From the NCBI GenBank assembly GCA_903910645.1, contig CAIWAD010000124.1, positions 16,445 through 80,444 of the forward strand: DNA of 64,000 bases, written 5' to 3'. The notes beneath the pieces were generated by a model. That model was not told where the DNA came from. It saw only the letters and a program-made list of their open reading frames with translations, and made no database searches. This stretch comes from an uncultured bacterium (lineage in GTDB: Bacteria > CAIWAD01). This document shows positions 18,144-41,571 of this stretch, in pieces. Position 1 is the stretch's first letter. Every line of letters begins with the position of its first letter. The translations under genes were made by a program, and so were the position numbers.

Positions 18144-19932
18144 AGTCTCCTCAGCACATGGATCCAGGCCTCCGTGTCCTTCCGTCCAAAGTGGTCGGGA
18201 TCGCCCACGAAGCGCAGGTCGGTGGTCAGGGTCAGCTTGTTCAGTTCAAACTCCACGAAGGAGCGCAGCCACATGCGCTCGGACAACTGGTCCCGGCCAG
18301 GCCGCCAGGTGCCGCGCACATTCAGCGAGGCAAGACGCAGCGGCTGCCAGCGCAGATGCATGGACAGGCGGTGTTCCAGGTCCACCAGATCCGCCGCCAC
18401 CAGGTGCTGCAATGCCATGGCGCTCAACTGGGCCTGCAAGCGATGGCCCCGGGCTTTCACCCACACTTCGTTCTTCAGCGTGTTGCGCAAAGTGTCGTCG
18501 CTGTAGACCAAATGGCTGCCCACATGGCGGCGCCACTCCAGACGATGTCCGCCCTGCAGGGTGCCATGGGGATTCAGTGTGCTGTTGAAGCTGGTCAACT
18601 GATCCAGCTCCTTCTGGGAAGGATCGGCCCAGGGGGCCACTGTTTCCCGGTCTTGCATGCGGAAGAGCTCCGCTCGCTGCAGGGCGCGCATGCTGAAGCC
18701 CAGCCAGGGCAGGGGCTCCACCGGCGCGATCATCTCCACCGTGGCCCGTCCCACCAGCCCGCGGCCATATTCGCGCGTCTCCGCCCAGCCGCCGCCCAGG
18801 TCGCCGCGCAGGGACAGATTGCGCTTCAACCACAGGGAGCGATCCATGAACCGGGACCAGGACTGGTGTTGGCCCGCGGCCTCCACCGCCGCCGCCATAC
18901 GCGCCAGGGGCTTCACCTGGAAGACCGCCAGGGCCAGCACATCCCGCCTGTGGACAAGATCCTCGTCCGTGATGCGCACGCGCTCGGTGGAGGCGCGCAG
19001 TTCGGCGCCCACTTCCTCCAAGGGCATCCAGCGCCAGGAGGCGTCGGCGTGACGGCGCAGCACATCCCGCTCCTCCAGCTCGGTGAAATCCGCGCCGGCA
19101 TTGATGGACAGGCGATGCTTCCCCCACAAGGTGGTGCGCAGGCGGTTCTGCCCCAGCACGCGGCGCACGCCCTTGCGCTGCACCAAAGCCGAGTTGCTGT
19201 GGACATCCACGCCACCAGGCAGCTCACCCGCCATGCTCAAGCCCGCAAGGCTGCGCTGAAGATCGAAGTCAAGGCTGTCCGCCAGGCCATACCAGGAGCT
19301 CTCGCCCCAGGCACGCGCCACGAACTGGTGCCAGGCGGGCACGCGGTGCTCCACCTCGGCCCGCATGAATCGATGGTCCGAGATGGCCTCGCCATTGAGC
19401 ACGCGACGGTTGCCCGCCACCACTCCCAGCTCGGTGGTGGGCATGGGACGCAGGGCCAGGCGCCCGCCCACGATCAGGTCGCGCAGGCGCAGGCTGTCGA
19501 TGAGGAAGGCATTGGGACGCCGCCAGCCGTGACGGGCGAAGAGTCCCAGTTCCACTCCGCCCAGGGGCGTCCAACCCAGGTCCGCCTGGAACTCGGGCGT
19601 GTAGATGCGCTGCTCGTAAAGACTGTTCTGTGCCATGGTGGCGCCGGTGCGCAGCAGCCAGTCCAGGCCGCCGGCCTTTTGCACCTGGCCATGGGCACCC
19701 ACCACCACCCGCGCCGTGTGCAGGCGCAGGTCCTCCCCGTAGGCCCCGGCGTAGCTGGAATCACTGACCCAGGTGCTGGTGTGGTCAATCCAGCCGTCCA
19801 GGGTGAAGGATCGCGACGGCTGATAGGCGGGCGCCTGCACCCATGTCGGAACCTGGAACGCGCCCAGCGCCGAACCGACAAGGGAAAGGGCGAAGAGCAA
19901 GGCGCAACGCATGTGGCGGGATCCTCTCATGG
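18137..19932 (-). CDS. Outer-membrane beta-barrel protein (putative porin component of a porin-cytochrome complex)
   Basis: The real start is an internal Met: MRGSRHMRCALLFALSLVGSALGA (signal). It runs ~570 aa with alternating amphipathic segments and ends in an aromatic residue (...VLRRLW). No TM helices. The upstream N-terminal extension of ORF 18137..20482 overlaps the NHL gene and was rejected. Confidence 0.6.
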
Positions 19933-20956
19933 CGCCACCTCCCCGGCCGGAAGTTCCGCCGACAGGTAGGGCAGATAGCGATAGGCCTGCACGCGCCGGT
20001 TGTACTGATCCACGATGTAGAGGTGGTCCCCGTGGAAGCAGAGCGCGCTGGGCAGCAGGAACTGGTCGCCCGCCCTGCCCGTGCCGCCGAACCAGTACAA
20101 AAGGGCGCCGCTGCGGCTGAAGACCTGGATGCGGCTGAAGGCGGCATCGCTCACATAAAGATTGCCGTCGCCATCGAAGGCCAGTCCCTTGGGAAACATG
20201 AAACCGCCCGGCGAGTGGTCGTAGACTCCGAAGGAGAACAGGAAGTCGCCCTGGGCGTTGAAGCACTGCACGCGATGGTTCAGGGCGTCCAGCACCCACA
20301 GTTGACCGTCGGGATCGCTGGCCACCGCCACGGGATGCAGGAACTGGCCCTGCGCGCCGCCTTCTCCACCCAGGGTGCGCTGCCAGCGGCCCTGGCCGTC
20401 GAAGCTCTCCACCACATGGCGGCCCGCATCCACGATGTGCAGCAGCGAGCCATCCCAGTGCATCTGTCCCGGCCTCTTCCATCCCTTGGGCGAAGACAGT
20501 TCGCCCTTCACATTGCCGGATCCGGACTCCAACAGGAAGACCTTGCCCCGGCCCGCGTCGCTCATGGCGATGCCGGCGGGAAAGGCGGCCACGCCCGTGG
20601 GCGTGGCGAACAAGGGCGAGGCCATCACTTCGAACGGTCGGGGCGAGCAGCCCTCGGGGCTAAGTCGCAGAAGGCGGGACAAATCGCCGTCGCACACCAG
20701 CACGCGGCCATCTGCATCCACATCCACATCGGTGGGGCGTCCCACGCTGGCGGTGGCGCAGCTGCCCGTCACCAGGCGCAGGGCCTTCATGCCCAGGCCT
20801 CCGTCCAGTCGCACCTGGGAAAGGACATCCCCCTCCTGCAGGTAGAGCGTGTCCGTGCCGGCGGCCACCAGGGGTCGCGGCCCCTGATGCGTCACCGTGG
20901 CGCATCCCGCCGCCAGGAGCAGGGAAAGGAAAAGGACAGGCAGGCGTCGCCTCATG
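19927..20956 (-). CDS. NHL-repeat beta-propeller lipoprotein
   Basis: Internal start MRRRLPVLFLSLLLAAGC (lipoprotein signal plus Cys). NHL-like repeats include GQFLHPVAVASDPDGQLWVLDALNHRVQCF and FMFPKGLAFDGDGNLYVSDAAFSRIQVF. The first ~340 aa of ORF 19927..21987 were rejected as a spurious extension. Confidence 0.7.
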
Positions 20957-23165
20957 GCAGCACCCGCTTCTCGCTTGAGTGGTAATAGCGGTACTTCCAC
21001 AGGGCCTTGTCTCCATGGCAATCGGCGCAGACGGCCTCGCTTGTCTCCTGGCGCAGGAAGTCCGGCGAATGTTCGCCGCCTCCCTCGGGGTGGGCCACAT
21101 GGGGGTTGTGGCAACTGGTGCAGTCCACGCGTCCAATGGCGCCGTCCGTGCGGCCCTCGGCATCGAAGAGCGGCATGGTGCGTCCGTCGGGTCGCGTCTG
21201 GCCCGCAAGGGTCATGTACTTCTGCGGATGGCCCCACGCCTCGGGTACATGGCTGCTGGCGCCCTGCTCGCGGTGGCAGGAGAGGCAGTGCCGGGCGCCC
21301 GGACTCCAGTTCTCCGCCTTGCGCTCCAGGCTTCCATCCGGCCGCACGGCGGCCACGCTGTCCATCTGGGCATTGTCCAGGCTGCTGGCGATGATGGCCC
21401 AATCCGACACGGCGCGGTGGGTGGTGTGGCAGGCCCGGCAGGCGCTCTCGTTGGGCCTGGTCTCGCTCAAGTCGTGGGCGCTTCCCAATACACGGGTCTC
21501 GCCGGAGTGGCAGGCGGAACAGAGTTGCGCGCCGGAGTTGGCCATGCGCAGGAAGGAGCTGTTGTCGTCGCCCTTGGCGTTGGCCTGCCAGGTGGGCGGT
21601 CCGGCGGGATTCCAGTGATGTGGCTCGTGGCAGGACTCGCAGCCCACCAGCAGATCGGCCGGTTCGGGTGTGCCGTCCGCAGGTCTCCAGGTGCGCAGGT
21701 TCTCTGCGCGGTAACCCGGCAGCTTGCTGCCCTTGGGCATGGCCCTGCCCACCGGATGGCCGTGCTGGCCCAGGGTGGTGGCCCCGTGCTTGCCGGTGCC
21801 CTCGTGGCAGCTCAGGCACAGGCTGGTGAACTCGGATGCTTCCGTCCGGGCATGGCCATCGCCAAATGCCTGCTGCTTGTGCGTGTTGTGGCAGGAAGTG
21901 CATTGGCCCCGGCTGGGCTCGCTCCAGTTGAAGGAGTTGTGGTCGGAGACCAGGGTTTGGGCCTGCTCGTTGTGGCAGTTGATGCACAGTCGGCCGTTTT
22001 CGTCATCGGGCAGGCGCAGGAAGCTGCCCAGGGCATCCCCATCCTCATTGCCCGGGCCCGGCTTGTGCCCTGGCATGGCGCTCCAGCGGTGGGGGTCGTG
22101 GCAGGTGGTGCAGCTCATGCCGCCCTCACGCAGGGGAAGGCGCACATTCTGCTCCTTCACCGGACGGTCCAGGGGATGGCCGTGCCCCACCCAGCTGATG
22201 GCGCCCGCCGCGCCCTTTTCCTGGTGGCAACTAAGGCAACGGGCGTCCACGCCATCCTTCACCACATCCGCGCCACGCCCGCCGGGCAGGGGCCAGGCCC
22301 ACATGGCCGGACCATTGCCGCCATGGGTCACATGGCAGGATGCGCAGGCGTCGCTTTGCCCGGCCGTGCGCCTCGTGTTGCCAATAGGCAGATTCCCGTG
22401 TTCTTCCTTCAGGTGGTGGTCGCTTTGCAGCACGGCGAAACTGGGCTCGTGGCAGCTGCGGCACAATTGGGTGCGGTCGGCGCCATCCACCAGCTTGGCC
22501 CGCTTGTCGCTGTGCATGTTGTGGCAACTAAGGCATTCCACCGTGCCTGTGGACACATGGCGTCCGGCCAGCTCCTGTGGCAGTGCCTGCTCCAGCTTGG
22601 CATGCAGGGGATGGTCTGTGTTGCGACGGGCGTGGTCCGCGTGGCACTTCAGGCACAAGGCGGAATTGTCCGCTTCCGCGCGCAAGAAGGGCACATACTG
22701 GAACTCGCGCTCCATGCGGTTCATGTGGGGCGTGTGGCAGCTGCCGCAGTAGATGTCCCCCTTGCGATCCAGGGGAAGGCCGCTGGCGGACACCGCCGCG
22801 CCATTGCTGGGCTTGTGGAAATGCGGATCGTCCTTCTGGAAGAAGCGCCGGCTGTCCCCCACATAACCGTCGTGGCAGGACCAGCACATGTCGCGGCTGG
22901 CCACGCGGGCTTCGCGGCCGTCGATCATCACAGGATGATCCACCGGCGGCAGCAGGACGGCCATCTTCTCATAGCCTTCACCCCACTCCACATGGCAGAT
23001 CACGCACTCCTTGGAGCGGTCCATGTGCAACTGGGCGTCCGCGCGACCGGCTGGGCCCAATCCAAGGGCAAGCCACAGGCCCGCGACTCCGCAGGCCAAG
23101 GTGGCGCGAAGCAGGCGGGCTTTCAGTCTCCGGGAGTCAAGATCCATGGGCGAAAATCCATTCAT
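20952..23165 (-). CDS. Multihaem c-type cytochrome (~18 CxxCH)
   Basis: Start MNGFSPMDLDSRRLKARLLRATLACGVAGLWLALG (signal). It has 18 CxxCH motifs (CVICH ... CADCH) spread over ~730 aa. Confidence 0.85.
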   Translation of the reverse strand: MNGFSPMDLDSRRLKARLLRATLACGVAGLWLALGLGPAGRADAQLHMDRSKECVICHVEWGEGYEKMAVLLPPVDHPVMIDGREARVASRDMCWSCHDGYVGDSRRFFQKDDPHFHKPSNGAAVSASGLPLDRKGDIYCGSCHTPHMNRMEREFQYVPFLRAEADNSALCLKCHADHARRNTDHPLHAKLEQALPQELAGRHVSTGTVECLSCHNMHSDKRAKLVDGADRTQLCRSCHEPSFAVLQSDHHLKEEHGNLPIGNTRRTAGQSDACASCHVTHGGNGPAMWAWPLPGGRGADVVKDGVDARCLSCHQEKGAAGAISWVGHGHPLDRPVKEQNVRLPLREGGMSCTTCHDPHRWSAMPGHKPGPGNEDGDALGSFLRLPDDENGRLCINCHNEQAQTLVSDHNSFNWSEPSRGQCTSCHNTHKQQAFGDGHARTEASEFTSLCLSCHEGTGKHGATTLGQHGHPVGRAMPKGSKLPGYRAENLRTWRPADGTPEPADLLVGCESCHEPHHWNPAGPPTWQANAKGDDNSSFLRMANSGAQLCSACHSGETRVLGSAHDLSETRPNESACRACHTTHRAVSDWAIIASSLDNAQMDSVAAVRPDGSLERKAENWSPGARHCLSCHREQGASSHVPEAWGHPQKYMTLAGQTRPDGRTMPLFDAEGRTDGAIGRVDCTSCHNPHVAHPEGGGEHSPDFLRQETSEAVCADCHGDKALWKYRYYHSSEKRVLP

Positions 23166-23188
23166 GGGGCCCTCCGGCGCGGGCTGTG

Positions 23189-24133
23189 TCAGGGAATGTC
23201 GAAGCGGATGATGCGGCTGGCGCGGCTGTCCACCACCCACCACGAAGCTCCGCAACACACAATGGCCGTGGGACCCTGGAGTTGCCAGGGCTTGCCCTTC
23301 AGCATCAACTGGCCCTGGCTCTGGGCGTACTCGTCATAGGCGTGCACCATGCCCAGGTAGCTGTCGGTGATGAGCAGGCCCTTGCCGTTCCAGCAGGCGC
23401 AGGCGCCCTTGGGACGATAGAGACGCTCGCCATCGGTGCCAAAAGAGCCCACCATGCGGTCAAAGTTCCCCAAGCGCGTGTAGGCCTGGATGCGGCCGCC
23501 CAGCACATCAATCACCATGAAGCCGTTCATGTGGCGGGACAGGATGCCCGGAAACTTGAACTCCTCCACGCGATCGCCCGGCTTGCCGTCGGGCAGGCTC
23601 ATGCCCGCCATGCGACGCATGGGGCGGATCTCGTCGGCGCCCCGGCCAATCACTTTCAACAGGGCGCCGTCGTAGCTGATCATCAGCAGGCGATGGTTGT
23701 CGTTGTCGGAGACCACCAGCTTGTCCTCCAGCGCCAGCACATCCACCGGATCGCAATTGGCCGGAAGCTTGATGGTCTGCACGGGACGCCCGTCCAGGGT
23801 GGTGACGAAAATGGAGCCGGCATCCGGATCGCTCACATAAAGGCGGTCCTTCCAGATATCGTTGCCCACCGGGTTCACAAAACCATCGTGGCGGATTTCA
23901 CGCATCAGGGCGCCCTGGGGGCTGATGACCACCACGCGCTTGTTCAGGCCGTCCACCACATAGGCGTTGCCGCGCTCGTCGGCCGCCAGGTCCGTGGGAT
24001 AAGTGGTGCCGGCGGCCACATCCTCCAGAATGCGCACATCCACCGCGCCGGCCACGCCGGCCAGCATCAGAAGCAGGATCGGGAGGAGCAGGGCTCTCCG
24101 ATCAGTACGCGGGCGGCAGGAAGAAGACTTCAT
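23189..24133 (-). CDS. NHL-repeat beta-propeller protein (secreted)
   Basis: Signal MKSSS..RRALLLPILLLMLAGVAGA. Repeats include YPTDLAADERGNAYVVDGLNKRVVVI and DRLYVSDPDAGSIFV. Confidence 0.7.
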   Translation of the reverse strand: MKSSSCRPRTDRRALLLPILLLMLAGVAGAVDVRILEDVAAGTTYPTDLAADERGNAYVVDGLNKRVVVISPQGALMREIRHDGFVNPVGNDIWKDRLYVSDPDAGSIFVTTLDGRPVQTIKLPANCDPVDVLALEDKLVVSDNDNHRLLMISYDGALLKVIGRGADEIRPMRRMAGMSLPDGKPGDRVEEFKFPGILSRHMNGFMVIDVLGGRIQAYTRLGNFDRMVGSFGTDGERLYRPKGACACWNGKGLLITDSYLGMVHAYDEYAQSQGQLMLKGKPWQLQGPTAIVCCGASWWVVDSRASRIIRFDIP

Positions 24134-26683
24134 TGTCGGTCACACTCGCGGTTATGGCGCTGCTGCGCAGTTGGCGAATCCGCTCCTCGTCGAAGCCCAC
24201 GCCGTGGAAGTCCACCAGCCCACCCTCGGGCACATGGCATTCTCCACAGGTGGCGCCCGTGCCTTCGCCGGACTGGATGCGATCGTGGAAGCGGTCCTTG
24301 GTGTCCTTCATGCGTGCCTGGGTCATGGGCGCGGAATTCTGCCGGTACTCCTCGGCACGAGGGCTGTCCAGATCGGCATAAAGCGGCTTTCCGCCCACCT
24401 TCAAGCCCAGCAGGCTGGTGTAATTGTCCAGCCCGGTGAAGGGCGGTGTGCCGGTCAACTTATAGGGAGCCTTGGGCTCGCCCTGGGGCTGGCGGCGGAG
24501 ATCCAGCCAGCTCCACTCCGCGCCCTTGCGGTCGGCCTCCTTGGCGTGGCAGGTCTCGCAGGTCATGAAGCGGCTGTGCAGGTTCAAGTAGGCCCGCGTC
24601 TTGCGGTCGTTCTGGTGCGGCAACATGGCGTGGCAGAGCAGGCACTCGCTTTGGCGCAGGGTGGAATCCGCCGTCACCACCGGCTCGGCATCGTGGAAGC
24701 GTCTGTGGCGCCAATCCACATCCTCGTTGGCGACACGCAAGGGATAACTGGGATCCGCCAGCGCCGCCTCCTTGTCCGCCAGCGGGCGCTTGCACCACTG
24801 GGCCACCACATCGGCGGCGGCCGGAGCCTTGTCCACTCCCAGGTAGAGGCGGAAGGACCACACCATGGCGGCGCAGGTGACAATGGTGAGAAACAGAAAG
24901 GACCATCCCAGGGTGCGGGCCAGGGTGTCGCGCGTGCTGCGGCGACGCTCCCGGGCCCCGGTGACCTCGTTCACCAGGATGGGGCCGAACTTCTCCACGG
25001 CATCCGGCTCCATGAGCGCGCCGTGCTCCTCCTCCATGTCCTCTTCGCCCATTTTGCCGTCAATCCACACCTCGCTCATGGGCCAGCGGCTGGGCTTCCA
25101 GTGCACGTTCCAGAAATGCCACACCACGATGGCCGCCACGGCAAGGATGGCCTCCAGCGAATGCACCAGGCGGGCCAGGTCCACGATGAACTTGCTGCCC
25201 AGGTGCTCCATCCACAGGATGATGCCCGTTCCTGTCATCACCACGGAGCCCCAGGCGAAGGCCCAGTACTCCATTTTCTCGCCATAGTTGAAGAAGCCGA
25301 AGGCCGGGCGATCCTTCCGCAGGCCCAACATGAAGCTGATGTTGTGGCTGATGAGCTTCATGTCCGATGGGCCGGGGAGCATGGCCCACATCAGGGCCCT
25401 GCCGCGCTTGCTGAACACCGCATAGCCCAGGTGGTAGAAACTCACCAGCGTGAGCAGGATGGCCGCCACGCGATGGCTCCAGTCACGCACGGGCATGAAG
25501 TATTCCCACCGCACAAGGGTGCCGAAGCGCTCCGGCGGAATCCACAGCATGACGCCTGTCAGAGCCAGCAGGGTGAAGCTGGTGAACATGACCACATGAC
25601 TGATGCGCTCCGCTGGGCTCAGGCGGCGGAAGACACGACGCACGGCGCCTTCGGGCTTTTGGTGGTGGGCCGCTGCGTGCGCCTTTCGATGGCGACGCCA
25701 GGCGATGTAGTCCAGCAGATTGTGGCCCAGCATGCCGCCAATGGTGAGCAGGATGATCCAGATGTAAATGCGCTTCACCCACACCAGGGCCTGCACCTTG
25801 GTGCCCTGGTAAAGGTTGTGCATGCTGCCGGCGGTGGCGAAAGACACCGTGGCGCCATCGTGGCAACCGGTTGTGCTGCAGGTTTTCTGCAGGTTCGCCG
25901 GGTTGATCATGGACTTGGAATCCTGATGGCTCAGGATGTTGTGGTGGCCATGGCAGTCGGCGCACACGGGGCTGCGCTTGTCCCCGAAGTTGAAGCCGCG
26001 GCCATGGAAGGACTCCAGGAAGCTGGAGACCATGGTGCCATCGATGAGCAAGGTTTCAAGGCTGTCGGACACCAGCTCGTTGTCCGTGTGGCAGCGGATG
26101 CAGGCCTCGAAGTTCTGCTGATGCCTCCAGTACTCGTCCTCGCTGATGTGCAGGGCCAGGTGCTTGAAGTCCTCGTCCAGGGCGTTGTAGTTCTCGTGGC
26201 AGGTGAGGCACTTGGCCTTGGCGCGCTCCATGTCCTCCGGAAGCTTCTGCCAGTAGACGCTGTTGAAGTGGCAGTCCTTGCACACCGGCTTGCGGTGGTC
26301 GTAGGGGCCCTTCCCCGTCTTGCCATGCACGCTGGCCGCCAGGTCCCTGGCCATTTTCTGATGGGAGTAATCGGCGCCGGTGTAGGGATCGATTACATGG
26401 CAGGCCACGCTGCAGTCCACCTTTTTCACCGGCGCGCGGTGGGGCACCTGATCGATGTCCGTGTGGCACTGGCGGCAGGCGAAGCGGCCATGGATGCTGC
26501 TTTTATGGACGCCTTCGTCGATGGTGAAATTGCGCACGCCCGCGCTGTCGCTGACGGCCATCCAGGGCTTGCCATGGCAGAAGAGGCAATTCTCGGGATC
26601 GAAGGTGCTGTCCTGGGCCACGGCCAGTGTGGCCAGCAGCAGTCCCGCCAGGGCAAGGATCTTCCGCAGGGGATCCATCATTC
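24102..26683 (-). CDS. Fused multihaem cytochrome c / di-haem cytochrome b / cytochrome c membrane protein (CbcL-like quinol oxidoreductase candidate)
   Basis: Start MMDPLRKILALAGLLLATLAVA. The N-terminal periplasmic domain has ~8 haem motifs, including CSVACH and CSTTGCH variants. The central domain has 4-5 TM helices with conserved His: ISHVVMFTSF, WSHRVAAILLTLVSFYHLGY and VAAIVVWHFWNVH. This resembles FdnI/HydC-type cytochrome b. The C-terminal domain has CLLCH, CETCH and CGECH. Confidence 0.8.
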
Positions 26684-27481
26684 CTCCAGCATGGGGAAGT
26701 GGAAGGGTTCGTAATTCTCCACCATGCCCACGGCGGCGGAGTGCGTCAATTCGTGGATGCGCGGTTGGCTGAAGCCCAGCGCGACCCATGGGAAAGCGGC
26801 TTCCGGCGTGTGGCAGGCCAGGCAGGCGCTGGGCGTTTTGCCCACATGCTCCTCGGCGAACTCGCGGAACTGGGCCTCGTCGATCTCCAGCCCGCTCAGC
26901 GCGTCGGCGCGGAACTGCTTGTAGCGCTGGTCATCGTAGGGCGTGAACAGCAGGGTGTTGCCGCCTGCCGCCGTGAGCACAGGGACGATGCGGCTGATGA
27001 AGTTGTGCCGCCCGGACAGGACGCCATCCTTCCCCCGCTCAAGTCCATAGGGGCCCAGGGCCGTGACCGTGTTGTCCGTGTCGAAGGAGGTCCACTCCAG
27101 CGAGGTGCGCGCGCGCATGGTGTCGTCCAGATGGCAGGCCAGACAGCTCATGAAATGGCTGTGCTGGTTGTAGAAGGCACGGCGCTTGGGATCCTTGGTG
27201 TGCGGGAAAAGCGGGTGGCATGTCAGGCAGGCCTCCTGCTGGCCCAGGGGCAGCAGGCTGTGCACCTCGATGTTGTGGAAGTGCTGCTCCTGGTTGCGGT
27301 AGTCCTCGAACCAGGTCTCCAGCTGCTCCACATGGTCCGTGAAGTGGCGCCTTCCCTGCTTTTCCTCCTCGTGGGCCTTGTGGGGACGGTTGGTCATCCA
27401 CACCAGCCAGGCGGACACAGCGCTGCCGATGACCAGGGCCGTAAGGCCGTAGGCCACCCGGCTGAAGGTTCTCATGCTCAT
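26678..27481 (-). CDS. Membrane-anchored tri-haem c-type cytochrome
   Basis: N-terminal TM anchor, then CLTCH, CLACH and CLACH. The stop overlaps the start of the downstream fused c-b-c gene. Confidence 0.7.
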   Translation of the reverse strand: MSMRTFSRVAYGLTALVIGSAVSAWLVWMTNRPHKAHEEEKQGRRHFTDHVEQLETWFEDYRNQEQHFHNIEVHSLLPLGQQEACLTCHPLFPHTKDPKRRAFYNQHSHFMSCLACHLDDTMRARTSLEWTSFDTDNTVTALGPYGLERGKDGVLSGRHNFISRIVPVLTAAGGNTLLFTPYDDQRYKQFRADALSGLEIDEAQFREFAEEHVGKTPSACLACHTPEAAFPWVALGFSQPRIHELTHSAAVGMVENYEPFHFPMLEE

Positions 27482-28263
27482 GCGTCACCATCCCGGCCGG
27501 CGGCGCCGTCCTGCTTGTCGTCGTCGTCGTGGCGTCGCACACGGCCACGCTTCAACTGCTCAAGGATGTCCTCCAGCTCGCGGGGATGCTCGTGCATCAT
27601 CTCCTCTTCGCTAAGGGTGCCGCGGTACCACACCTTGTTGGCGGGCCACACGCGGGGATTGAAGTGCACGTTGTAGAAGTGCCAGATGACAATGGCCAGG
27701 AAGGCCAGCAGGGCCTCGTCACTGTGGGCCACATAGGCGATCTGGATGACCTCTGAGGGGAACCACTGGCCGCTGGCCTCCGGATACCACAGCAACAGGC
27801 CGCTGCCCGCCATGATGAACATGCCCCAGAACACCGCCCAGTAGTCGAATTTTTCGATGTAGGAGAAGCGGTGGAAGCGGGGACGCTCCTCACTCAGGAA
27901 AAGGAAGTAGCGGATGTTCGTGGCAATGTCCCGGGCATCCTGCAGGTTCGGCAGCAGATGCATGCCGGAAAGGGGCGTGCGGTTGCGCACGATGTTGAAG
28001 AACACATAGAACACATGGACGGCGAAATCGGCGATCATCACCACCGCGGCCACGCGATGAATGGTGCGCACCGTGTCGATGCCCCCGAAAAGGTTGATGG
28101 AGTGCGACCAGAAGGCGGTGTCCGGGAACTTGATGGGGAAGCCCGTCACCACCAGGACAATGAATGGCACAAACATGAAGATGTGCTGCAGGCGCTGGCT
28201 GAGCGAGAAACGCACATACTCCCGCCTTCCCCCCACCACGCGAATGCGATCACTCACTCTCAT
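27478..28263 (-). CDS. Di-haem cytochrome b membrane subunit (FdnI/HydC/PF01292-like)
   Basis: The real start is the internal ATG (MRVSDRIRVVGG). Four TM helices carry His ligands (TIHRVAAVVMIADFAVHVFY; IVIWHFYNVHF). The upstream 112 aa of ORF 27478..28599 are Ala/Arg/Pro-rich and were rejected. Confidence 0.7.
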   Translation of the reverse strand: MRVSDRIRVVGGRREYVRFSLSQRLQHIFMFVPFIVLVVTGFPIKFPDTAFWSHSINLFGGIDTVRTIHRVAAVVMIADFAVHVFYVFFNIVRNRTPLSGMHLLPNLQDARDIATNIRYFLFLSEERPRFHRFSYIEKFDYWAVFWGMFIMAGSGLLLWYPEASGQWFPSEVIQIAYVAHSDEALLAFLAIVIWHFYNVHFNPRVWPANKVWYRGTLSEEEMMHEHPRELEDILEQLKRGRVRRHDDDDKQDGAAGRDGDA

Positions 28264-29296
28264 GGCGGCCTCCTCCCGAGAAGCGCCCGTGGACCCAGCG
28301 GCCGAAGTCCAGCAGGATGTGGCTGAAGAGCAGGGCCATGGTGATGGCCGTGAGCAGGATGAAGCCCCAGGTGACCACATAGACCACCGGATTGCTCTCC
28401 ATGGTGGGCTTGCTGTGGATGGCCGAGCGCGCGAACTCAATGCTGGGGCTGATGTGGCAGCCCGTGGTGCCGCAGGTCTGGCGGATGTTCGCCGTGGACA
28501 GCGTGGAGGCCGGGTCGTCCTGGGGCAGCACAAGATGACTGGTGTGGCAATCCGCGCAGTTGGCCACGCCATCCAGGCCGCGCCGCATGGCCTTGCCATG
28601 GAAGTGGTGCTGGAAGCCTTCCACCTGCGTGCTGCTCACATTCACGCTCTCCATCAGCGTGGCGTCGCCGTGACAGCTTGAGCACAAGCGCACGATGTCC
28701 AGCGAGTTCTCCGCGCTGCGGTGGGAAGTGTGGCGGTCAATGTGCTGGATGACGCCTTCCAGGGACTTGCCGTCGTGGCAGTTGGCGCAGTGCTTGGCCT
28801 GCTCCTGCACGCGCTGGTCCGGGGCCGCCATGCGATGGCTGCCGTGGCAGTACTTGCAGCCGGGCTTGGCGGCGTTGGTTTCGGGATCGTCCTTGGGATT
28901 CTGCCCGTGCACGCTCATGGCGTGGGCTTCCACTTCGCCGCGGTGGGAGAACACCGTCAGCTCGAAGGGGCGGTTCACATGGCAGGTCTTGCCGCAGTCC
29001 ACCTTCTGCACCACCTGTGGATGCGGAAACGCATCGATGTCCGCGTGGCAGTCCCGGCAGCCGATGCCCTTGTGGGAGCTGTGCATCACGGTCTCGGCGC
29101 TCACCTCGTAGAGGCGGAAACGGCCCTTGTCGTCGTGGCGCGACAACAGGGGCAGCCCATGGCAGAGTTCGCAGTTCTCCGAATCCGCCAGACGCGGATT
29201 GGCCAGCGAAGACGCCAGCGGCAGCAAGGCGAGAAGGGCCGGGAGCAGGCCCCTGGCCAGAGAGGCCAAGGCGCCCCTACAGGTCGTGACAGGCAT
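28250..29296 (-). CDS. Multihaem c-type cytochrome (~8 haems) with C-terminal TM anchor
   Basis: Signal peptide, then CELCH, CRDCH, CGKTCH, CKYCH, CANCH, CSSCH, CADCH and CGTTGCH. The C-terminus has a hydrophobic helix (VVYVVTWGFILLTAITMALLF). Immediately upstream of the cytochrome b gene, so this looks like a split Cbc-type module. Confidence 0.8.
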   Translation of the reverse strand: MPVTTCRGALASLARGLLPALLALLPLASSLANPRLADSENCELCHGLPLLSRHDDKGRFRLYEVSAETVMHSSHKGIGCRDCHADIDAFPHPQVVQKVDCGKTCHVNRPFELTVFSHRGEVEAHAMSVHGQNPKDDPETNAAKPGCKYCHGSHRMAAPDQRVQEQAKHCANCHDGKSLEGVIQHIDRHTSHRSAENSLDIVRLCSSCHGDATLMESVNVSSTQVEGFQHHFHGKAMRRGLDGVANCADCHTSHLVLPQDDPASTLSTANIRQTCGTTGCHISPSIEFARSAIHSKPTMESNPVVYVVTWGFILLTAITMALLFSHILLDFGRWVHGRFSGGGRHESE

Positions 29297-30218
29297 AGCA
29301 GATCCGCTCTTTTGCCGCCCGCAGGAGCTTGGAGGCGGGGGCGCCTCCGCCCGAGCAGGCGGGATTTGGGCTGTGACAGGTGGCGCAGGCCACCGTTCCC
29401 CCGGGTCCCAGGGGCAGGATCACGCCGCTCTGGGCCTGGAACCGTTCCAGCGCGGCGGCGGTGTTCATCTTCAATCTGTTGTGCAGCACGGAGCGTCCCA
29501 CATGCTCCCGCTCATGCTTCACATCCTTGTGGCACTTCAGGCACAGTTCGCCCTGGGGCAGCTGAAGGCCCTTGCCGGGCTGGGCCGCATCGCCGCCCTC
29601 CGCGCTGTGGCAGTACCAGCAGGCCTTGTTGTCCTCGGACTGGCCGTGGGGATAGGTCTGCTTGTAGAGTTCGCGCGTGTGGCACTGGTAGCAGAAGTCC
29701 GTCTCCCGGGGCCATGGTCCGCCACGCAGCATGCTGCGGTTCTCCCGCGCCACGCGATAGCTGGTGGTCTCGTCGCAGTTGATGGCGTGGCAGGTCAGGC
29801 AAGTGCCACGGCCTTCCTTCAGGCGCGCATTGGCCGGACTGGGCGCCTTGGAGCTTGCCCCGGAGAAATCCGTGGGATGGATTTCACGCAAATGGGCCTG
29901 GGGGTCGTGGCATTCCACACAAGCGCCGTCCCGCCAGTTGGCCGCCGCCGGAGTCTGCCCGGGCGTGTGGCATTGGTCGCAACGGTTGGGCCGGCCGTGG
30001 GGGTTGTCCTTGCCAGGCAGAGTCAGGTGCTGCTTCTGGGCGGGCCTGGGTGCCGGGGCCGCCGCACGCGCGGGCACGGGTGGCTTGCACAAGCCACAGG
30101 ACGGTTTGGCGCAGTCATCATGGGTGGCCGGGGCAGGAGCCGCTCCCAGCTGGGCACCAAGCAGCAGCGCCAGCAAACCGACAACCCAGGAACCTGACCA
30201 CGAGCGTTGAACCATCAC
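29277..30218 (-). CDS. Periplasmic octahaem c-type cytochrome
   Basis: Start MVQRSWSGSWVVGLLALLLGAQLGA. Motifs CDQCH, CVECH, CLTCH, CYQCH, CWYCH, CLKCH, CATCH and CYACH. Confidence 0.8.
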   Translation of the reverse strand: MMVQRSWSGSWVVGLLALLLGAQLGAAPAPATHDDCAKPSCGLCKPPVPARAAAPAPRPAQKQHLTLPGKDNPHGRPNRCDQCHTPGQTPAAANWRDGACVECHDPQAHLREIHPTDFSGASSKAPSPANARLKEGRGTCLTCHAINCDETTSYRVARENRSMLRGGPWPRETDFCYQCHTRELYKQTYPHGQSEDNKACWYCHSAEGGDAAQPGKGLQLPQGELCLKCHKDVKHEREHVGRSVLHNRLKMNTAAALERFQAQSGVILPLGPGGTVACATCHSPNPACSGGGAPASKLLRAAKERICYACHDL

Positions 30219-30222
30219 GCCA

Positions 30223-31410
30223 TCACTCCAGCGGATAGGATAGGCCTTGCTCCTCCCAGCGATTGGGAAGGGGCAGGTCGTCATGGATGAGCGCATTGGC
30301 GCCGAAGCGCAGGCTGAGCAGGTCGTAGCCCAGCACATTGAGGTAGAAACCCACGAAGGCGCTGGTCTGGCCCGTCCAGCAGTAGAGGACATTGGTGTTG
30401 GCCGGATGCAGGGCGCTCAGGTCCTGATTGGTGGTCAGGCTGCCCGGGCTAAGCTGATAGGCGCCCTGGACATGGCCGTACGTGAAGTAGTCGTCCTGCA
30501 GCCAGTAGTTGTGGATGATGAAGGAGCCGGGGTTGTCCATGACCTCGTAGGCGTTCACAGCGTTGGCCGTGAAGCCCTCCGCCAACACCGCCGACACCCG
30601 CGCCTGCAGAATGGCCTGCCCCGAGGCCAGTCCCGTGGACAGCTCGGGCCAGTCGAAGGTGGGAAGGGCGGGACTGTTGCCGTAGCTCATCACCGATTCG
30701 TATGCGTTGCTGATGCCTGCATTCCAGGGCCCTGCCAGCAGGTCGTTCCACCCCGCCATGCCCCATTGCAGACTGAAGGCGTCGTGGCCCAACATGCGCA
30801 ATGCCATGGTGGCGAAGGCCGCCACCTGTCCCGTGTCACAAGCCAGCAGCACCGGCAGGCCGCCACTGTTCTGCCCTTCCACCGTGGACACCAGCGTGGT
30901 AAGGCTGGCATTGCGAGCGCCGGGAATGTGCCCTGCCAGGAAGGCCTGGCTGCTGCGGAGATCCACCACGAAGTACTGGCCCAGATTGGCGTTCACCGTG
31001 GTGGCAGGCAGGATCCAGTTGGTGGCCCAGGTGGCGAACTGGGCGTCCGTGATGGCCGCCAGGCGGTTGAATTCCCCGCGCACGGAGATGGAGGTGGAAC
31101 GGCTGGCGCTGTCCACGCCATCGCTGACCTCCACCAGGATCGTCACCTGCCCGGAAGCCGGTGCCTGCCACTGGATGTTGGCCGTGCTGCCAATGGCCAG
31201 ACCATCAACTGTCCAGGCATAGGTCAAGGCGTCGCCATCGGCGTCGCTGGCCGTGCAGGCAAGAGTGATGGTCTCGCCGGGATCGGGGGTGGGATCGCTG
31301 GCGGTGACACCGCTGATGACAGGCGGGCTGTTGCCCTCCTCAGAAGAGGAACAGCCACCCAAAATGAGGGCGGCCATCAGGCCCGTGACGAAAATGCGTG
31401 CGCGACCCAT
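30223..31410 (-). CDS. Lipoprotein with N-terminal PKD/Ig-like domain and two rhodanese-like domains
   Basis: Lipobox ILGGC. The PKD-like segment reads TASDADGDALTYAWTVDG. The rhodanese domains contain YFVVDLRS...AGHIPGA, with Cys loops LLACDTGQVAAF and LYCWTGQTSAF. Confidence 0.7.
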   Translation of the reverse strand: MGRARIFVTGLMAALILGGCSSSEEGNSPPVISGVTASDPTPDPGETITLACTASDADGDALTYAWTVDGLAIGSTANIQWQAPASGQVTILVEVSDGVDSASRSTSISVRGEFNRLAAITDAQFATWATNWILPATTVNANLGQYFVVDLRSSQAFLAGHIPGARNASLTTLVSTVEGQNSGGLPVLLACDTGQVAAFATMALRMLGHDAFSLQWGMAGWNDLLAGPWNAGISNAYESVMSYGNSPALPTFDWPELSTGLASGQAILQARVSAVLAEGFTANAVNAYEVMDNPGSFIIHNYWLQDDYFTYGHVQGAYQLSPGSLTTNQDLSALHPANTNVLYCWTGQTSAFVGFYLNVLGYDLLSLRFGANALIHDDLPLPNRWEEQGLSYPLE

Positions 31411-31434
31411 GGCCGATCCTTTCCGGAAATGAAT

Positions 31435-31458
31435 CCGGGCCGCCCGAGGGCGGCCCGG
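31435..31458 (-). terminator. GC-rich hairpin (possible attenuator or terminator) between the two rhodanese paralogs
   Basis: CCGGGCCGCC and GGCGGCCCGG form a perfect 10-bp stem with a 4-nt loop. On the minus-strand transcript it is followed by AUUCAUUUCC, which is only weakly U-rich. Confidence 0.3.
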
Positions 31459-31471
31459 ACACGAGGTGGAC

Positions 31472-32431
31472 TTAGTTGGTTTCCAGCTCGTAGTTGAAGC
31501 CGGTGGCGGCCCAGGCGTTGGCCGGCATGGTGTCGTGGTACAGCGCGTTGGCGCCGTACTTCAGGCTAAGCACATCATAGCCCAGGGCGTTCAGGTAGAA
31601 ACCCACCAGGGCGCTGGTCTGGCCCGTGTAGCAGTAGAGCACCTGCTGGTCGGCGGGATCCAGGGCGTCCAGGTCCGTGGTGGTGGTCAGGTTGCCCGGA
31701 GTCAGCTGGTAGGCGCCGTCGATGTGGCCAACGGCGTAGTGGGCGGCGCTCCAGTAGTTGAAGATCTGGTAGTCACCCGGAGTGGCCATTACGGTGGCTG
31801 CGGTGACGATGTTGGGCGTCAGGCCTTCAGCCAGGATGGCGTTCACGCGGGCCTCCAGGATGGCCTGGCCATCGGTGAGGCCGGTGTTCAGTGCAGGGAA
31901 CTCGAAGGTGCCCAGGGCGGGGCTGGCGCTGGTGACCATGTTGCCCACATAGGCGTTGCTGATGCCCGTGGCCCAGCTGGTGTTCAAGGCGTCATTCCAA
32001 CCGCCCATGCCCCACTTCACGGAGAAGGCGTCCGTCCAGCCCAGCATGCGCAGAGCCATGGTGGCGAAGGCCGAAGTCTGGCCCGTGTAGCACACCACCG
32101 CCACCGGCAGGTCGCTGGTGTTGTTGGTGGCGATGTTGTCGGCCATGGTGGTCAGCGTGGCGTTGTGGGCGCCGGGGATGTGGCCGGCAGCGTAGTCCGT
32201 GGCGCTGCGCAGGTCCACCACATAAAGGTTGGCCAGGTTGGTGTGGACATAGTCCGCGCCCTGCACCCAGCCCGTGGTCCAGCCGGCGAAGCCCGTGTCC
32301 GTGAGCTCGCTCATGAGGGCGAACTCGTCCACCGGTGTGGTATTGTCGTCGTCGTCATCCTCGGAGCAGCCGGTGAAGACGGAAAGGGTGAGCGCCACGG
32401 ACAAAGCCAAGGCGAGCTTCTGGAACTTCAT
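31472..32431 (-). CDS. Lipoprotein with two rhodanese-like domains (paralog of 30223..31410)
   Basis: MKFQKLALALSVALTLSVFTGC lipoprotein signal. LYVVDLRSATDYAAGHIPGA. Cys loops VVCYTGQTSAF and LYCYTGQTSAL. Alignable to the neighbouring gene over the full rhodanese region. Confidence 0.7.
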   Translation of the reverse strand: MKFQKLALALSVALTLSVFTGCSEDDDDDNTTPVDEFALMSELTDTGFAGWTTGWVQGADYVHTNLANLYVVDLRSATDYAAGHIPGAHNATLTTMADNIATNNTSDLPVAVVCYTGQTSAFATMALRMLGWTDAFSVKWGMGGWNDALNTSWATGISNAYVGNMVTSASPALGTFEFPALNTGLTDGQAILEARVNAILAEGLTPNIVTAATVMATPGDYQIFNYWSAAHYAVGHIDGAYQLTPGNLTTTTDLDALDPADQQVLYCYTGQTSALVGFYLNALGYDVLSLKYGANALYHDTMPANAWAATGFNYELETN

Positions 32432-32531
32432 GCGAACTCCTGTGTTTTGGAAAGTTGGGTCCATTGACCCATTGGTGACGCGCCCGTGGCCGCCGACCCT
32501 CCCAAGCCCGCGGCCCGACCCGTTTCAACCA

Positions 32532-34094
32532 TCAATGTCTGTTCCAATACCTCGTGATGCTGTCGTCCACTGCAGTGGCCCGGTTGGCCCGCACATACTC
32601 GTCGGGGTCCTCCAGACCCGTGACGGACGACTTCAAACTGTCCAGATGGCTCAGCCACAGGAAGCGCCTGGCGTTGGCCTCCTCGTGCGGGCCCTGGACA
32701 TGGCAGCTCATCCAGCAGTCTCCCATGCTGTAGGCAGGGTTGGACAGCGCCACGGCCGTCTGGGGCGTGAAGCGCTGGATGTTGTGGGGACTGGAGTACT
32801 CCCAGGTGGGGAAGGAGGACCAGTTCTGCAGACTGGGCCAGCCCCACTCGCGAAAGCCATCCTTGATCACCGGGATGTGGCGCACGGTGACCCACTCCTC
32901 ATGCTCCACCGGATGGGTGGAAATTGCGCCTGTGTTGCGACCAATGCGGAAGTCAGTGTACTCAGAATACCCCTCGGGGTCTCCACTGTTCCACACGCCG
33001 CCGGAGTGGCAATTCAGGCAGTTGGTGTAGGGCTGGCTGTGGCACACGGTGCAGGACAGGCCCTCTTCCATGGAGCCTTCCCCCGGCCAGTGATAGGCGT
33101 GGAAAAGGTTGTCCTCCGCCGCCAGGCTGTGGCAGTTGGTGCAGCGCGGCATGCCTTCCACTTCATAACGGCTGGTGTAGTCCGTGCGGCCGTCCCCGTG
33201 CAGATTCTCCTGGTGGCAGAAGAAACAGTCGAAGCCCAGCTCATTGTGCACATCGGGGCGATTGCCCTCGTGGTGGCCGTTGTAGTCGTTGCCCACGCGG
33301 CTGCCATGGCAGGCGGTGCAGTTGTTTTCAATGTCAGGCGTGCGCTTGAAGCGATGGCTGTCCAGCAGGCCGCCCTTCACACTGGTGGGACGGGACACAT
33401 GGCATTGGCCGCAGGTGGCGTGGCAGCTGGAACATTCCCGCGCATGGCCTTCCTTGAGCAGCTCGGGACAATCCTCCCAGCTTTCGTAGCCGGCGCGCAG
33501 GGCGATCTTCGCCTTTTCGCCCCACAGCTGGCTGTGCATGGACGTGGCATGCAGGTCCACGATCTGGGCATGGCAACCCGTGCCGTTGCAATTCAGCTCC
33601 GGCTGGGTGCTGGGATCCCGCGTGATGCCCTTCACCGTGGGCTTTTCACGAATGACGCGCCCGTTGCTGGTGTAGCGCACCTCGAACTGGTGGGCCGCCG
33701 CCATGGCCACCCACAAATCATCCCGCGAGCCACTGGCCGCCACCACCTGATCCACGCCGCCGTGGCAGGTGACACATCCCACAGCCGCATGGTTGGGGTC
33801 AACTTCGGCGTAGCTGTCGGCGTCGATGAACACTTTTGCATAAGGCTCCAACGGAGCCACGGCGCCGCCTCAGCCACCACCCGCGCTTTCACTGGCCGCC
33901 TCTTCCACCGCCAACAGACGCAGATAGTCCCGGTTGGTGTGGCAGCTCTCGCAGCTAAGGGTCACCGCGTCGCCCGACGAGGCGGGATCCGCGGTGATGG
34001 GGTCGATGCGTTCGCACCCCTGCTGCAAGGCGGCAAAGAGGCTCCCCCACAACAGAAGGCGCCACCATGCCTGTGAAAATGCGCTTGTCGTCAT
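32532..34094 (-). CDS. Multihaem c-type cytochrome (~11 haem motifs) interrupted by a single in-frame TGA (33870-33872)
   Basis: ORFs 33870..34094 and 32532..33860 are in the same frame, separated by one TGA. The first carries signal peptide MTTSAFSQAWWRLLLWGSLFAALQQGC and CESCH. The second carries 10 haem motifs with no signal. The TGA sits in the codon run GGT GGT TGA GGC GGC. Confidence 0.7.
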
Positions 34095-34284: not shown

Positions 34285-34312
34285 AATATAGGCGGCGAAG
34301 GCGCAGAGTCAA
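34285..34312 (-). promoter_or_regulatory. Candidate sigma70-like promoter for the cytochrome operon (minus strand)
   Basis: The minus strand reads TTGACT-N16-TATATT (reverse complement of 34285-34312). It lies ~190 nt upstream of the first cytochrome start, in the only AT-richer intergenic stretch of the region. Confidence 0.3.
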
Positions 34313-41444: not shown

Positions 41445-41571
41445 GGATGATCTCACGCTTGGTTGAACGACCGGTGAATCTACCACTGCCACCGGCAAGT
41501 GGACCCACAAGTGGAAGGGGCCACCGCGGCGGCCCCTTCCAAAGATGCAGGCATCGTCAACGCCGCTCGAG

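Follow-up and report, generated by a model that had tools for sequence, protein, structure and literature searches.

Tandem double-rhodanese lipoproteins coupled to a candidate selenocysteine multihaem cytochrome in a cytochrome gene row of an uncultured bacterium

Results

Two lipid-anchored double-rhodanese paralogues

The DNA analyzed here is a 64,000-nucleotide (nt) stretch of contig CAIWAD010000124.1 (assembly GCA_903910645.1) from an uncultured, Delongbacteria-like bacterium, hereafter the window. Within a row of cytochrome genes on the minus strand, two adjacent genes encode paralogous lipoproteins with two rhodanese domains each, denoted RhdB and RhdA, and directly upstream of these lies the gene for a multihaem cytochrome that is a candidate selenocysteine (Sec) protein. 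The rhodaneses themselves are of a known kind; what appears to be new, and apparently undescribed, is their conserved pairing with a new Sec/Cys family of multihaem cytochromes.

RhdB (31472..32431, minus strand), the canonical member of the family, is a 319-amino acid (aa) lipoprotein with two GlpE-like rhodanese domains; the longest open reading frame (ORF) extends over 31472-32464, and the likely start is the ATG at 32431, with an AGGAG 6 nt upstream and with homologues that begin with MK. RhdA (30223..31410, minus strand), a lipoprotein of 395 aa that is 52% identical to RhdB, combines a PKD-like beta-sandwich with two rhodanese domains. The Pfam Rhodanese model PF00581 (gathering score 22.2) matches two stretches in each protein (RhdA, E=4e-18, 66 bits; RhdB, E=1e-22, 81 bits). 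Both possess a signal peptide and a lipobox (VFTG-C22 in RhdB, ILGG-C20 in RhdA), with lipidation predicted; up to the lipid Cys, the N-terminal sequences of the two proteins are MKFQKLALALSVALTLSVFTG-C and MGRARIFVTGLMAALILGG-C, and the residues that follow are C-SSSEEG in RhdA and C-SEDDDDD in RhdB. The Pfam matches, the lipoboxes and the level of identity bear out a previous sequence-only reading of the window, which had recognized two adjacent double-rhodanese lipoprotein paralogues.

The putative active-site loops of RhdB are VCYTGQTSA (Cys114, codon 32092-32090) and YCYTGQTSA (Cys267, codon 31633-31631), and the protein has no cysteines other than these two and the lipid Cys22. In RhdA, the loop of the first domain, ACDTGQVAA (Cys191, codon 30840-30838), is diverged, and that of the second is YCWTGQTSA (Cys344, codon 30381-30379). 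The motifs quoted in the sequence-only reading (CYTGQTSA, CWTGQTSA and CDTGQVAA) are present in these sequences exactly as given. In the AlphaFold2 (AF2) model of RhdA, derived from a 40-sequence alignment (predicted local distance difference test score, pLDDT, 91.7; predicted template modelling score, pTM, 0.81), the beta-sandwich is followed by two alpha/beta domains, with Cys191 located between strand 187-190 and helix 195-206, and Cys344 between strand 339-343 and helix 348-359. The first domain of RhdB aligns, Cys for Cys, with the catalytic loop CYHGNSS of E. coli GlpE (phmmer; PDB 1gmx). All four loop cysteines occupy the first position between the central strand and the next helix, which is the rhodanese active-site position; the earlier concern that they might fall outside the catalytic loop, in inactive domains, was checked and does not apply to these domains, which are not degenerate.

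A Foldseek search of the PDB with RhdA retrieved tandem sulfurtransferases, namely 6mxv, A. vinelandii RhdA (1e0c), 1yt8 and bovine TST, with E-values from 3e-9 to 1e-5, and in a profile search against the PDB sequences the rhodaneses matched 1yt8 (2e-18) and 6mxv (1e-17). Because the whole-chain root-mean-square deviation (rmsd) is large, the two rhodanese domains are arranged differently from those of the classical tandem rhodaneses. Among the NCBIfam models, each domain is nearest to the single-domain GlpE/PspE type (GlpE, E=3e-17, with scores under the equivalog cut-offs).

The rhodanese loops consist of six residues, C-Y/W/D-T-G-Q-T/V-S/A, with no Arg at +6. Six-residue loops are typical of sulfurtransferases, and seven-residue CX5R loops of the Cdc25/Acr2 phosphatases and arsenate reductases, so that RhdA and RhdB are of the sulfurtransferase type and an arsenate reductase or phosphatase reading of their domains is ruled out. 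In bovine TST and SseA, the N-terminal rhodanese domain is inactive; in contrast, both domains of RhdA and both domains of RhdB have kept the Cys at the catalytic position. Judging from their sequences, RhdA and RhdB are members of the rhodanese superfamily that belong to the rarer, PhsE-like kind with both domains of the active type.

The N-terminal domain of RhdA (residues 31-110, about 31075-31332) is a seven-strand beta-sandwich in the AF2 model, and Foldseek superimposes it on the PKD domain of ColG (4tn9, 4aqo) with a target-normalised template modelling (TM) score of 0.82 and an rmsd of 1.8 A. The Pfam models PKD and Big_9 score just under their cut-offs on RhdA (23.2 against 23.6 bits for Big_9). 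The PKD/Ig-like N-terminal domain that had been proposed for one of the paralogues is, accordingly, upheld by the structural comparison, with Pfam just below its thresholds.

A candidate selenocysteine cytochrome upstream of the rhodaneses

The gene directly upstream of RhdB (32532..34094, minus strand; start ATG at 34094) encodes a candidate selenocysteine multihaem lipoprotein cytochrome of 520 aa, with a signal peptide, the lipobox LQQG-C and CESCH as the first haem motif. The protein contains nine CxxCH motifs, one CX4CH (CNGTGCH) and one CX3CH (CWMSCH); the latter two may be non-standard haem sites, which would bring the total up to 11 haems. In the family alignment, the Cys and His residues of the CX4CH (residue 169) and the CX3CH (residue 460) are invariant or nearly so.

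An in-frame TGA codon (33870..33872, minus strand), read here as Sec75, joins a 74-aa ORF, which encodes the signal peptide, the lipobox and haem 1, to a 442-aa ORF (32532-33860). Sec75 is part of a GGG-U-GG loop located 27 residues after haem motif 1 (SAGGG-TGA-GGAVAPLEPY). The TGA aligns with Cys codons of homologues: in 55 of these, the position is Cys (GG-C-GG), encoded by TGC or TGT, as in the Bacteroidales sequence ...PAGG-C-GGEAPHYEPY. Among the assessable loci, that is, those with a readable Sec/Cys site and enough downstream DNA, the codon is TGA in 12 + 56 and TGC/TGT in 55. A hairpin resembling a selenocysteine insertion sequence (SECIS), GGCUCC-GUU-GGAGCC (33844..33858, minus strand), with GUU as its apical loop, begins 12 nt after the UGA; the rule for the spacing between the UGA and the hairpin comes from bacterial SECIS models. 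Across 13 distinct Sec-type sequences, 93.6% of the cells in this hairpin are paired, compared to 30-50% in slid controls, and four of the six pairs have changed on both sides (for example, GCUCC/GGAGC, GUUCC/GGAAC, GUACC/GGUAC and GUGCC/GGCAC). Bacterial selenoproteins are typically recognized by just this combination, an in-frame TGA aligned with Cys and a covarying SECIS-like hairpin behind it, which makes this cytochrome a candidate selenocysteine haem lipoprotein. In the literature searched, MccSep, the product of ExtKL, is the only multihaem selenoprotein.

In the gene calls of relatives, the cytochrome is split into the 74-aa and 442-aa ORFs, with the loss of the N-terminus. The family comprises 1515 homologues that are named in the sources either "hypothetical" or, wrongly, "thiosulfate sulfurtransferase". 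Among the gene calls of the Joint Genome Institute (JGI), P0148, P0166, P0191, P0195, P0200 and P0230 carry the name "thiosulfate/3-mercaptopyruvate sulfurtransferase", and only cytochrome domains are present in them. The window's cytochrome has no NCBIfam model and no significant match in the PDB by phmmer or by profile search; for P0160, a full-length homologue of the Cys type, the pLDDT of the AF2 model was only 59, and the Foldseek search of the PDB came back empty.

Coupling of the cytochrome and the rhodanese

In our genome survey, a multihaem cytochrome of about 450 aa precedes the rhodanese on the same strand in 68 of the 81 loci. The exceptions include loci at a contig end, with the rhodanese at the edge (L006, L020, L040, L046, L051, L057), and six loci that are genuinely devoid of the cytochrome (L032, L036, L041, L050, L071, L077). 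Wherever the arrangement could be assessed, the rhodanese lies directly downstream of the Sec/Cys cytochrome (123/123 loci; median gap, 56 nt), across metagenome-assembled genomes (MAGs) of Bacteroidota, Ignavibacteriota, Marinimicrobia and Delongbacteria-like organisms. The loci ascertained through the rhodanese contain 55 Cys-type and 12 Sec-type cytochromes, with the rhodanese next in 67/67; in the metagenome loci ascertained through the cytochrome, a sample that is unbiased as to the rhodanese, 56/56 Sec-type cytochromes (43 distinct) are followed by the rhodanese. The claim of the sequence-only reading that rhodanese lipoproteins are rare in electron-transfer clusters does not hold in the face of these counts and of the 1831 homologues of RhdB: the pairing is common. 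The same reading had taken the rhodaneses for genes inserted into a metal-oxide conduit and missed the immediately upstream cytochrome gene, which is their specific partner.

The loci in which the reactive residue has been lost present another facet of this coupling. With His (L087) or Asp (L088/L106) at the Sec/Cys site, the cytochromes, the cytochrome b and the NHL cluster are kept, and the rhodanese gene is absent. In L169, the loop is deleted and there is no RhdB-type gene; the only rhodanese that stays is a PKD-bearing RhdA-like gene, with the Cys of its first domain lost (DETGQ). Because the lineages without Cys/Sec are also without the RhdB-type gene, the canonical rhodanese seems to track the reactive residue of the cytochrome. 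A strict rule of the form "no Cys/Sec, no rhodanese" had to be softened in view of L169, which has no loop and yet retains a PKD-type rhodanese with a dead first domain. Gln, His or Asp occurs at the Sec/Cys position in some homologues (P0199, P0210, P0212 (Marinimicrobia-like), L087, L088), and a MerR-type regulator opens the clusters of L087 and L170. In most of the Bacteroidota loci, the pair stands alone, with no conduit genes.

Expansion and other genomic settings of the rhodanese family

At about 320 aa, the RhdB homologues of the protein collection are lipoproteins found mainly in MAGs of Bacteroidota, Ignavibacteriota and Marinimicrobia; there are no Geobacter names among the best 120 of the 1831. 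The second-domain loop C[YW]TGQTS is present in all 133 members compared, the Cys of the first domain is missing in 1/133, and a lipobox was found in 110/133. The family consensus after the lipid Cys is C-[SEK]-K-[DE]-[DE]-[DE]. The Bacteroidetes lipoprotein export signal (C-X-K-(D/E)2 or SDDDD), which has been validated in Bacteroidetes only, drives surface exposure (PMC5080379). The family consensus and C-SEDDDDD of RhdB match this signal in pattern, RhdB being from a Delongbacteria-like organism outside Bacteroidetes, and RhdA fits it poorly. An acidic run after the lipid Cys is present in only 28/101 of the cytochromes, and C-ERIDP of the window's cytochrome fits the export signal poorly.

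The PKD-bearing, RhdA-type paralogue is confined to the window's clade, in which the Cys of the first domain is sometimes lost (DETGQ). A Candidatus Delongbacteria MAG and L005 carry the duplicated rhodanese in the form of one lipoprotein of about 610 aa that has four Cys loops; L171 encodes a four-loop lipoprotein along with a PKD-rhodanese, that is, six rhodanese domains; and tandem or fused rhodanese duplications are found also in L007, L011, L041, L050 and L055. The RhdA/RhdB tandem is one state of a clade-specific rhodanese expansion. Four-domain, Cys-bearing rhodanese lipoproteins of about 605-625 aa are encoded in L086 (11438-13267), L005 (9026-10864), L041 (9995-11869), L050 (9014-10873) and L171 (4127-5944). 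The rhodanese fusion arose in high-GC Delongbacteria-like lineages as well as in low-GC lineages of Bacteroidota.

A divergent Crp/Fnr-type regulator is present in 40/81 loci. The six cytochrome-less loci contain, in this order, a divergent Crp/Fnr regulator, the rhodanese, a gene for a phosphate-type porin (Porin_O_P) and a second double rhodanese; to these, the neighbourhood of L032 and L036 adds YeeE/YedE (Sulf_transp), single-domain rhodaneses, and DsrE-like and HdrA/MvhD-like genes. Judged by these neighbours, the cytochrome-less loci are an independent sulfur-trafficking context. The adjacency of rhodanese and porin in these loci mirrors that of ExtH and ExtI, the latter having been reported to be similar to phosphate porins (PMC5877670).

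In L084 (2827-7576), from a Tenuifilaceae MAG, the Cys-type pair comes directly after genes for a cysteine desulfurase/Sec-lyase-like protein, TusA, Se_S_carrier, SelD and NTP_transf_3, and the genes downstream encode DUF5777, a multihaem cytochrome, a cytochrome b, and proteins like NrfC and NrfD, a layout found in this locus only.

The surrounding gene row

Downstream of the rhodaneses, the minus strand of the window carries a series of cytochrome genes. The first of these encodes an 8-haem periplasmic cytochrome (29277..30215; 312 aa) that starts 7 nt after the RhdA stop codon, and is followed by genes for a 6-haem cytochrome with a C-terminal membrane helix (28250..29296; 348 aa), a di-haem cytochrome b of the Ni_hydr_CYTB family that would be the quinol-interacting membrane subunit (27478..28263; 261 aa), a 3-haem membrane-anchored cytochrome (26678..27481; 267 aa), and a protein of 858 aa in which a 9-haem cytochrome c is fused to a di-haem cytochrome b (Ni_hydr_CYTB; 24102..26678), an architecture that we take to be like that of Geobacter CbcL. 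Next come an NHL-repeat beta-propeller protein (23189..24133) and an 18-haem cytochrome with MtrC/MtrF-like domains (20952..23258; likely start, 23165), a gap of 469 nt in longest-ORF coordinates, a putative outer-membrane beta-barrel (18137..19930), and an 11-haem DmsE/MtrA-like cytochrome (16488..18143; 551 aa). The ORF at 18137..19930 amounts to 781 aa at its longest, with the probable start at 19930 or 19912, which would give a product of about 591-597 aa that begins with a signal peptide and ends in ...LRRLW; it has no Pfam match, and homologues occur in related clusters. Going by sequence pattern only, the product is a candidate for the outer-membrane barrel of the conduit.

The gaps between the Sec cytochrome and RhdB, RhdB and RhdA, and RhdA and the 8-haem cytochrome are 100, 61 and 7 nt, respectively, and each gene from the 8-haem cytochrome through the NHL protein overlaps the next one. 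The co-directional cytochrome row, the 7-nt gap and the overlaps amount to operon-like spacing, in agreement with the sequence-only reading, in which the rhodanese genes were embedded in a cytochrome operon; co-transcription of the Sec cytochrome, the rhodaneses and the downstream cytochromes is plausible on these grounds. A promoter-like site, TTGACT-16-TATATT (34285..34312, minus strand), is located about 190 nt upstream of the start of the Sec cytochrome and matches 10 of the 12 consensus positions; it is a weak site and a possible operon promoter, and the promoter and terminator scans yielded site counts in this region that are not above the shuffled expectation. A hairpin between RhdB and RhdA (31447-31435), considered as a terminator, is weak and not convincing.

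The Candidatus Delongbacteria MAG shares the synteny of the window, including the flanking genes, and its cytochrome is 78% identical to that of the window. Elsewhere in the window, a 1078-aa fusion of a B12-binding domain, a MeaB-like GTPase and methylmalonyl-CoA mutase (38208-41510, minus strand) is 85% identical to its counterpart in the same MAG and served to place the window's organism as a relative of that MAG. A 1238-aa ORF (8162-11878, minus strand) with gene-like codon bias has no Pfam match and is the neighbour of genes for an RCC1-repeat protein (4306-6306) and a CBM20-containing protein (6495-8135). A RecBCD-type operon (RecD, RecB-like helicase-nuclease and RecC; 45947-54704, minus strand) lies beside a gene for a transporter of the SulP/STAS sulfate-permease family (54637-56493, plus strand).

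Discussion

A possible role in the reduction of sulfane sulfur

The interpretation that we favor, with a probability of roughly 0.55, is that the pair constitutes a rhodanese-fed, Sec/Cys-dependent haem reductase for sulfane sulfur, functionally analogous to ExtH with ExtKL/MccSep and to Sud with Psr. Under this scenario, RhdB and RhdA would be extracytoplasmic, lipid-anchored carriers of the sulfurtransferase type that serve as the substrate-handling partners of the upstream Sec cytochrome. The Cys of a rhodanese loop would take up sulfane sulfur, from polysulfide, species derived from elemental sulfur (S0) or thiosulfate, in the form of a persulfide, and hand it over to the reactive residue on the cytochrome's flexible GG-U-GG loop, which is Sec here and Cys in other lineages, whereupon the Se-S or S-S bond would be cleaved reductively by electrons from the haem chain, with the release of sulfide. 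The electrons, conceivably, would be drawn from the quinol pool by way of the operon's cytochrome b subunit, its CbcL-like fusion and its periplasmic multihaem cytochromes. In the window's clade, the rhodanese part of the system would have been duplicated, with one copy gaining the PKD domain. We infer the substrate, the hand-over step, the direction of electron flow and the cellular location from the gene coupling, the sulfur-related contexts, and the analogies with MccSep and with Sud-Psr/SbdP.

The operon-like spacing and the full quinol-to-outer-membrane set of cytochromes encoded downstream support a reductase. Because the rhodanese lipoproteins form a widely conserved pair with the Sec cytochrome, respiration by this gene cluster probably involves sulfur compounds and not just metal oxides. 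The hint at sulfur or selenium chemistry in the sequence-only reading has been strengthened by the Sec/Cys cytochrome, the conservation of the pair, the clusters with YeeE, DsrE and porin genes, and the demonstration that ExtKL is a selenocysteine polysulfide reductase (PMC13510729).

Several observations weigh against this interpretation. The PDB searches brought out no resemblance between the cytochrome and MccSep, Otr, MccA or NrfA, or any chain of solved structure, and because of this lack of similarity to solved enzymes, together with the poor AF2 model, a catalytic role of Sec75 is a conjecture. The pattern of loss that links the rhodanese to the reactive residue comes from three lineages only, one of which keeps a rhodanese paralogue. 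The rhodanese loops are devoid of basic residues, which leaves no obvious basis for binding anionic thiosulfate or polysulfide. The pair of L084, adjacent to SelD, TusA and Se/S-carrier genes, would fit selenium handling too. The direction of electron flow is not readable from sequence. No Sec-insertion machinery or tRNA-Sec was found in the 64-kb window, which is uninformative for such a short piece.

Alternative explanations

The same set of genes could, in principle, operate in the oxidative direction, with the rhodaneses binding or cleaving thiosulfate or sulfide-derived sulfane sulfur, and the Sec/Cys cytochrome performing an oxidation of the kind catalyzed by the His/Cys-ligated haem of TsdA and SoxXA, and so feeding the cytochrome chain. 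His/Cys-ligated haem enzymes that oxidize thiosulfate do exist, and the chemistry of MccSep is considered by the authors of its description to be the reverse of that of TsdA/SoxAX (PMC13510729). Many of the carriers come from sulfidic habitats, to judge by record titles such as SulCav, and the sequences by themselves do not fix the direction. However, the Crp/Fnr regulator in 40/81 loci, the quinol-oxidase-like cytochrome b, the CbcL-like proteins and the single NrfC/NrfD locus resemble anaerobic terminal-reductase systems, and the flanks examined showed no genes for Sox, Dsr or SQR, which leaves oxidation unlikely. Rather unlikely, too, appears a system for selenium or tellurium, hinted at in the sequence-only reading, in which the rhodaneses would bind selenium as a perselenide and selenite or tellurite would be reduced by the cytochrome, be it to respire, to detoxify or to acquire selenium. 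That MccSep also reduces selenite and that ExtI mutants are defective in both selenite and tellurite reduction (PMC13510729, PMC5877670) lend this explanation some appeal, as does the L084 pair, with its neighbouring genes for SelD, the cysteine desulfurase/Sec-lyase-like protein, TusA and Se_S_carrier. Nevertheless, the SelD setting is limited to that one locus and is absent from the recurrent neighbour clusters, on account of which we did not retain it as evidence for selenium handling, whereas the other contexts consist of sulfur genes; compared with sulfur species, selenium oxyanions are scarce where the pair is common, namely in sulfidic and marine habitats; and MccSep itself favors polysulfide over selenite about 7-fold.

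The strict pairing and the loss of the rhodanese along with the Sec/Cys residue would be explained equally well by a dedicated accessory protein, with the rhodaneses persulfidating, reducing or protecting the Sec/Cys of the cytochrome, or supplying sulfur for its maturation. We consider such a maintenance role improbable, given that the four to six rhodanese domains per locus fit bulk handling of a substrate better than stoichiometric repair, as does the acidic signal of the Bacteroidota members that resembles one for surface export (PMC5080379), and that the rhodanese family is also found apart from the cytochrome, beside porin/YeeE uptake genes. Finally, the 18-haem MtrC-like cytochrome, the 11-haem MtrA/DmsE-like cytochrome, the putative barrel and the NHL protein downstream do look like a porin-cytochrome conduit, and one might suspect an ordinary conduit to metal oxides in which the rhodanese domains are structural or vestigial. 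The conservation of the catalytic Cys in both domains across the family, the specific coupling of the rhodanese to the Sec/Cys residue, and the presence of the pair without any conduit genes in most of the Bacteroidota loci make this the case only with very low probability.

Implications

To our knowledge, until 2026, only molybdoenzymes were known to respire elemental sulfur or polysulfide in bacteria. MccSep then showed that an enzyme with haem and selenocysteine can respire S0/polysulfide, and the present pair gives the impression of a second, independent version, with a built-in sulfur-carrier partner, represented by well over 1000 sequences from sediments, sulfidic caves, lakes and the lineages of marine oxygen-minimum zones (Marinimicrobia). 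In its broader form, the proposal is that this two-gene enzyme system embodies a second Sec/Cys family of multihaem cytochromes, independent of MccSep and obligately coupled to a rhodanese, which functions as an extracytoplasmic respiratory reductase of S0/polysulfide (or another chalcogen) across Bacteroidota, Ignavibacteriota, Delongbacteria-like lineages and the ocean-abundant Marinimicrobia; to this proposal as a whole, we give odds somewhat short of even. If it is correct, these lineages, which are generally not credited with S0/polysulfide respiration, would include organisms capable of it, and the gene pair would become a marker for cryptic sulfur cycling in the Fibrobacterota-Chlorobiota-Bacteroidota (FCB) group. 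There would be, furthermore, a new family of selenoproteins that gene callers split, missing the N-terminal haem and the lipid anchor, and some of the multihaem clusters now considered "metal-reducing" would have to be re-read as sulfur-handling. The Cys-type versions in Bacteroidota and Ignavibacteriota offer the better prospects for culture and genetics.

Comparison with known systems

The two rhodanese domains of each chain resemble GlpE and PspE of E. coli in the D-x-R and GHI-GA-N motifs and in the six-residue loop, CY(H/T)G(N/Q)(S/T)S, present in each domain; what sets RhdA and RhdB apart is the doubling of the domain within one chain, the lipid anchor and the dedicated cytochrome partner. 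Sulfur supply to a respiratory reductase by a rhodanese has precedents. Sud, the polysulfide-sulfur transferase of Wolinella succinogenes, binds polysulfide sulfur on a Cys and delivers it to PsrABC. SbdP of Aquifex aeolicus is, as cited in PMC6148476 (Aussignargues et al. 2012), a sulfur-supplying rhodanese for a respiratory reductase. Unlike RhdA and RhdB, Sud and SbdP are single-domain, soluble, non-lipoprotein rhodaneses with a molybdoenzyme partner. The resemblance to PhsE of Desulfitobacterium hafniense, described as having two rhodanese domains in tandem, each with an active site (Prat et al. 2012, as cited in PMC6148476), consists, going by that description, in the catalytic Cys kept in both domains and in the location in an operon for a respiratory reductase of sulfur compounds; by the same description, PhsE differs in accompanying a molybdopterin thiosulfate reductase in a Gram-positive host.

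Our searches of the literature on Melioribacter, Marinimicrobia, Delongbacteria and selenoproteins brought up no description of the gene pair, and the only hint comes from the work on Dethiobacter alkaliphilus, a reducer of sulfur and thiosulfate without molybdopterin reductases, in which the octahaem cytochrome DealDRAFT_1917, encoded beside rhodanese genes, has been proposed as a determinant of sulfur reduction (PMC10376724). Going by its description, DealDRAFT_1917 is similar to the window's cytochrome in being a multihaem cytochrome mis-annotated as a thiosulfate sulfurtransferase and in having rhodanese neighbours (PMC10376724); in contrast to the present case, the host is a Firmicute, no Sec is reported and the function is only proposed.

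The closest parallel is the system of Geobacter sulfurreducens. ExtKL/MccSep is a Sec- and haem-dependent polysulfide reductase, weaker on selenite and needed for S0 respiration, with the Sec on a mobile loop (PMC13510729, PMC6148476), and beside it are encoded the rhodanese ExtH and the porin-like ExtI, which is reported to resemble phosphate porins (PMC5877670, PMC13510729, PMC6148476). By its architecture as published, MccSep is set apart from the window's cytochrome, which is not a member of the MccSep family: MccSep has 5 haems, a Sec325 (DGUP) in a C-terminal Ig-like stem and a His/Cys-ligated haem 2, is periplasmic, and occurs mainly in Desulfobacterota and Nitrospirota (PMC13510729), whereas the protein described here is an FCB-group lipoprotein with 9-11 haem motifs and with Sec75 (GGUGG) right after haem 1. 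ExtH, at 49 kDa (PMC5877670), is larger than RhdA and RhdB (33-40 kDa), and there is no Porin_O_P gene beside the rhodaneses in the window, so that the ExtH-type neighbourhood (extI with extKL) is not matched there. What the window shares with ExtH-ExtI-ExtKL (GSU2940-2936) is the general layout: a rhodanese lipoprotein encoded beside a candidate selenocysteine multihaem cytochrome with the Sec on a flexible loop, together with a cytochrome b and further multihaem cytochromes.

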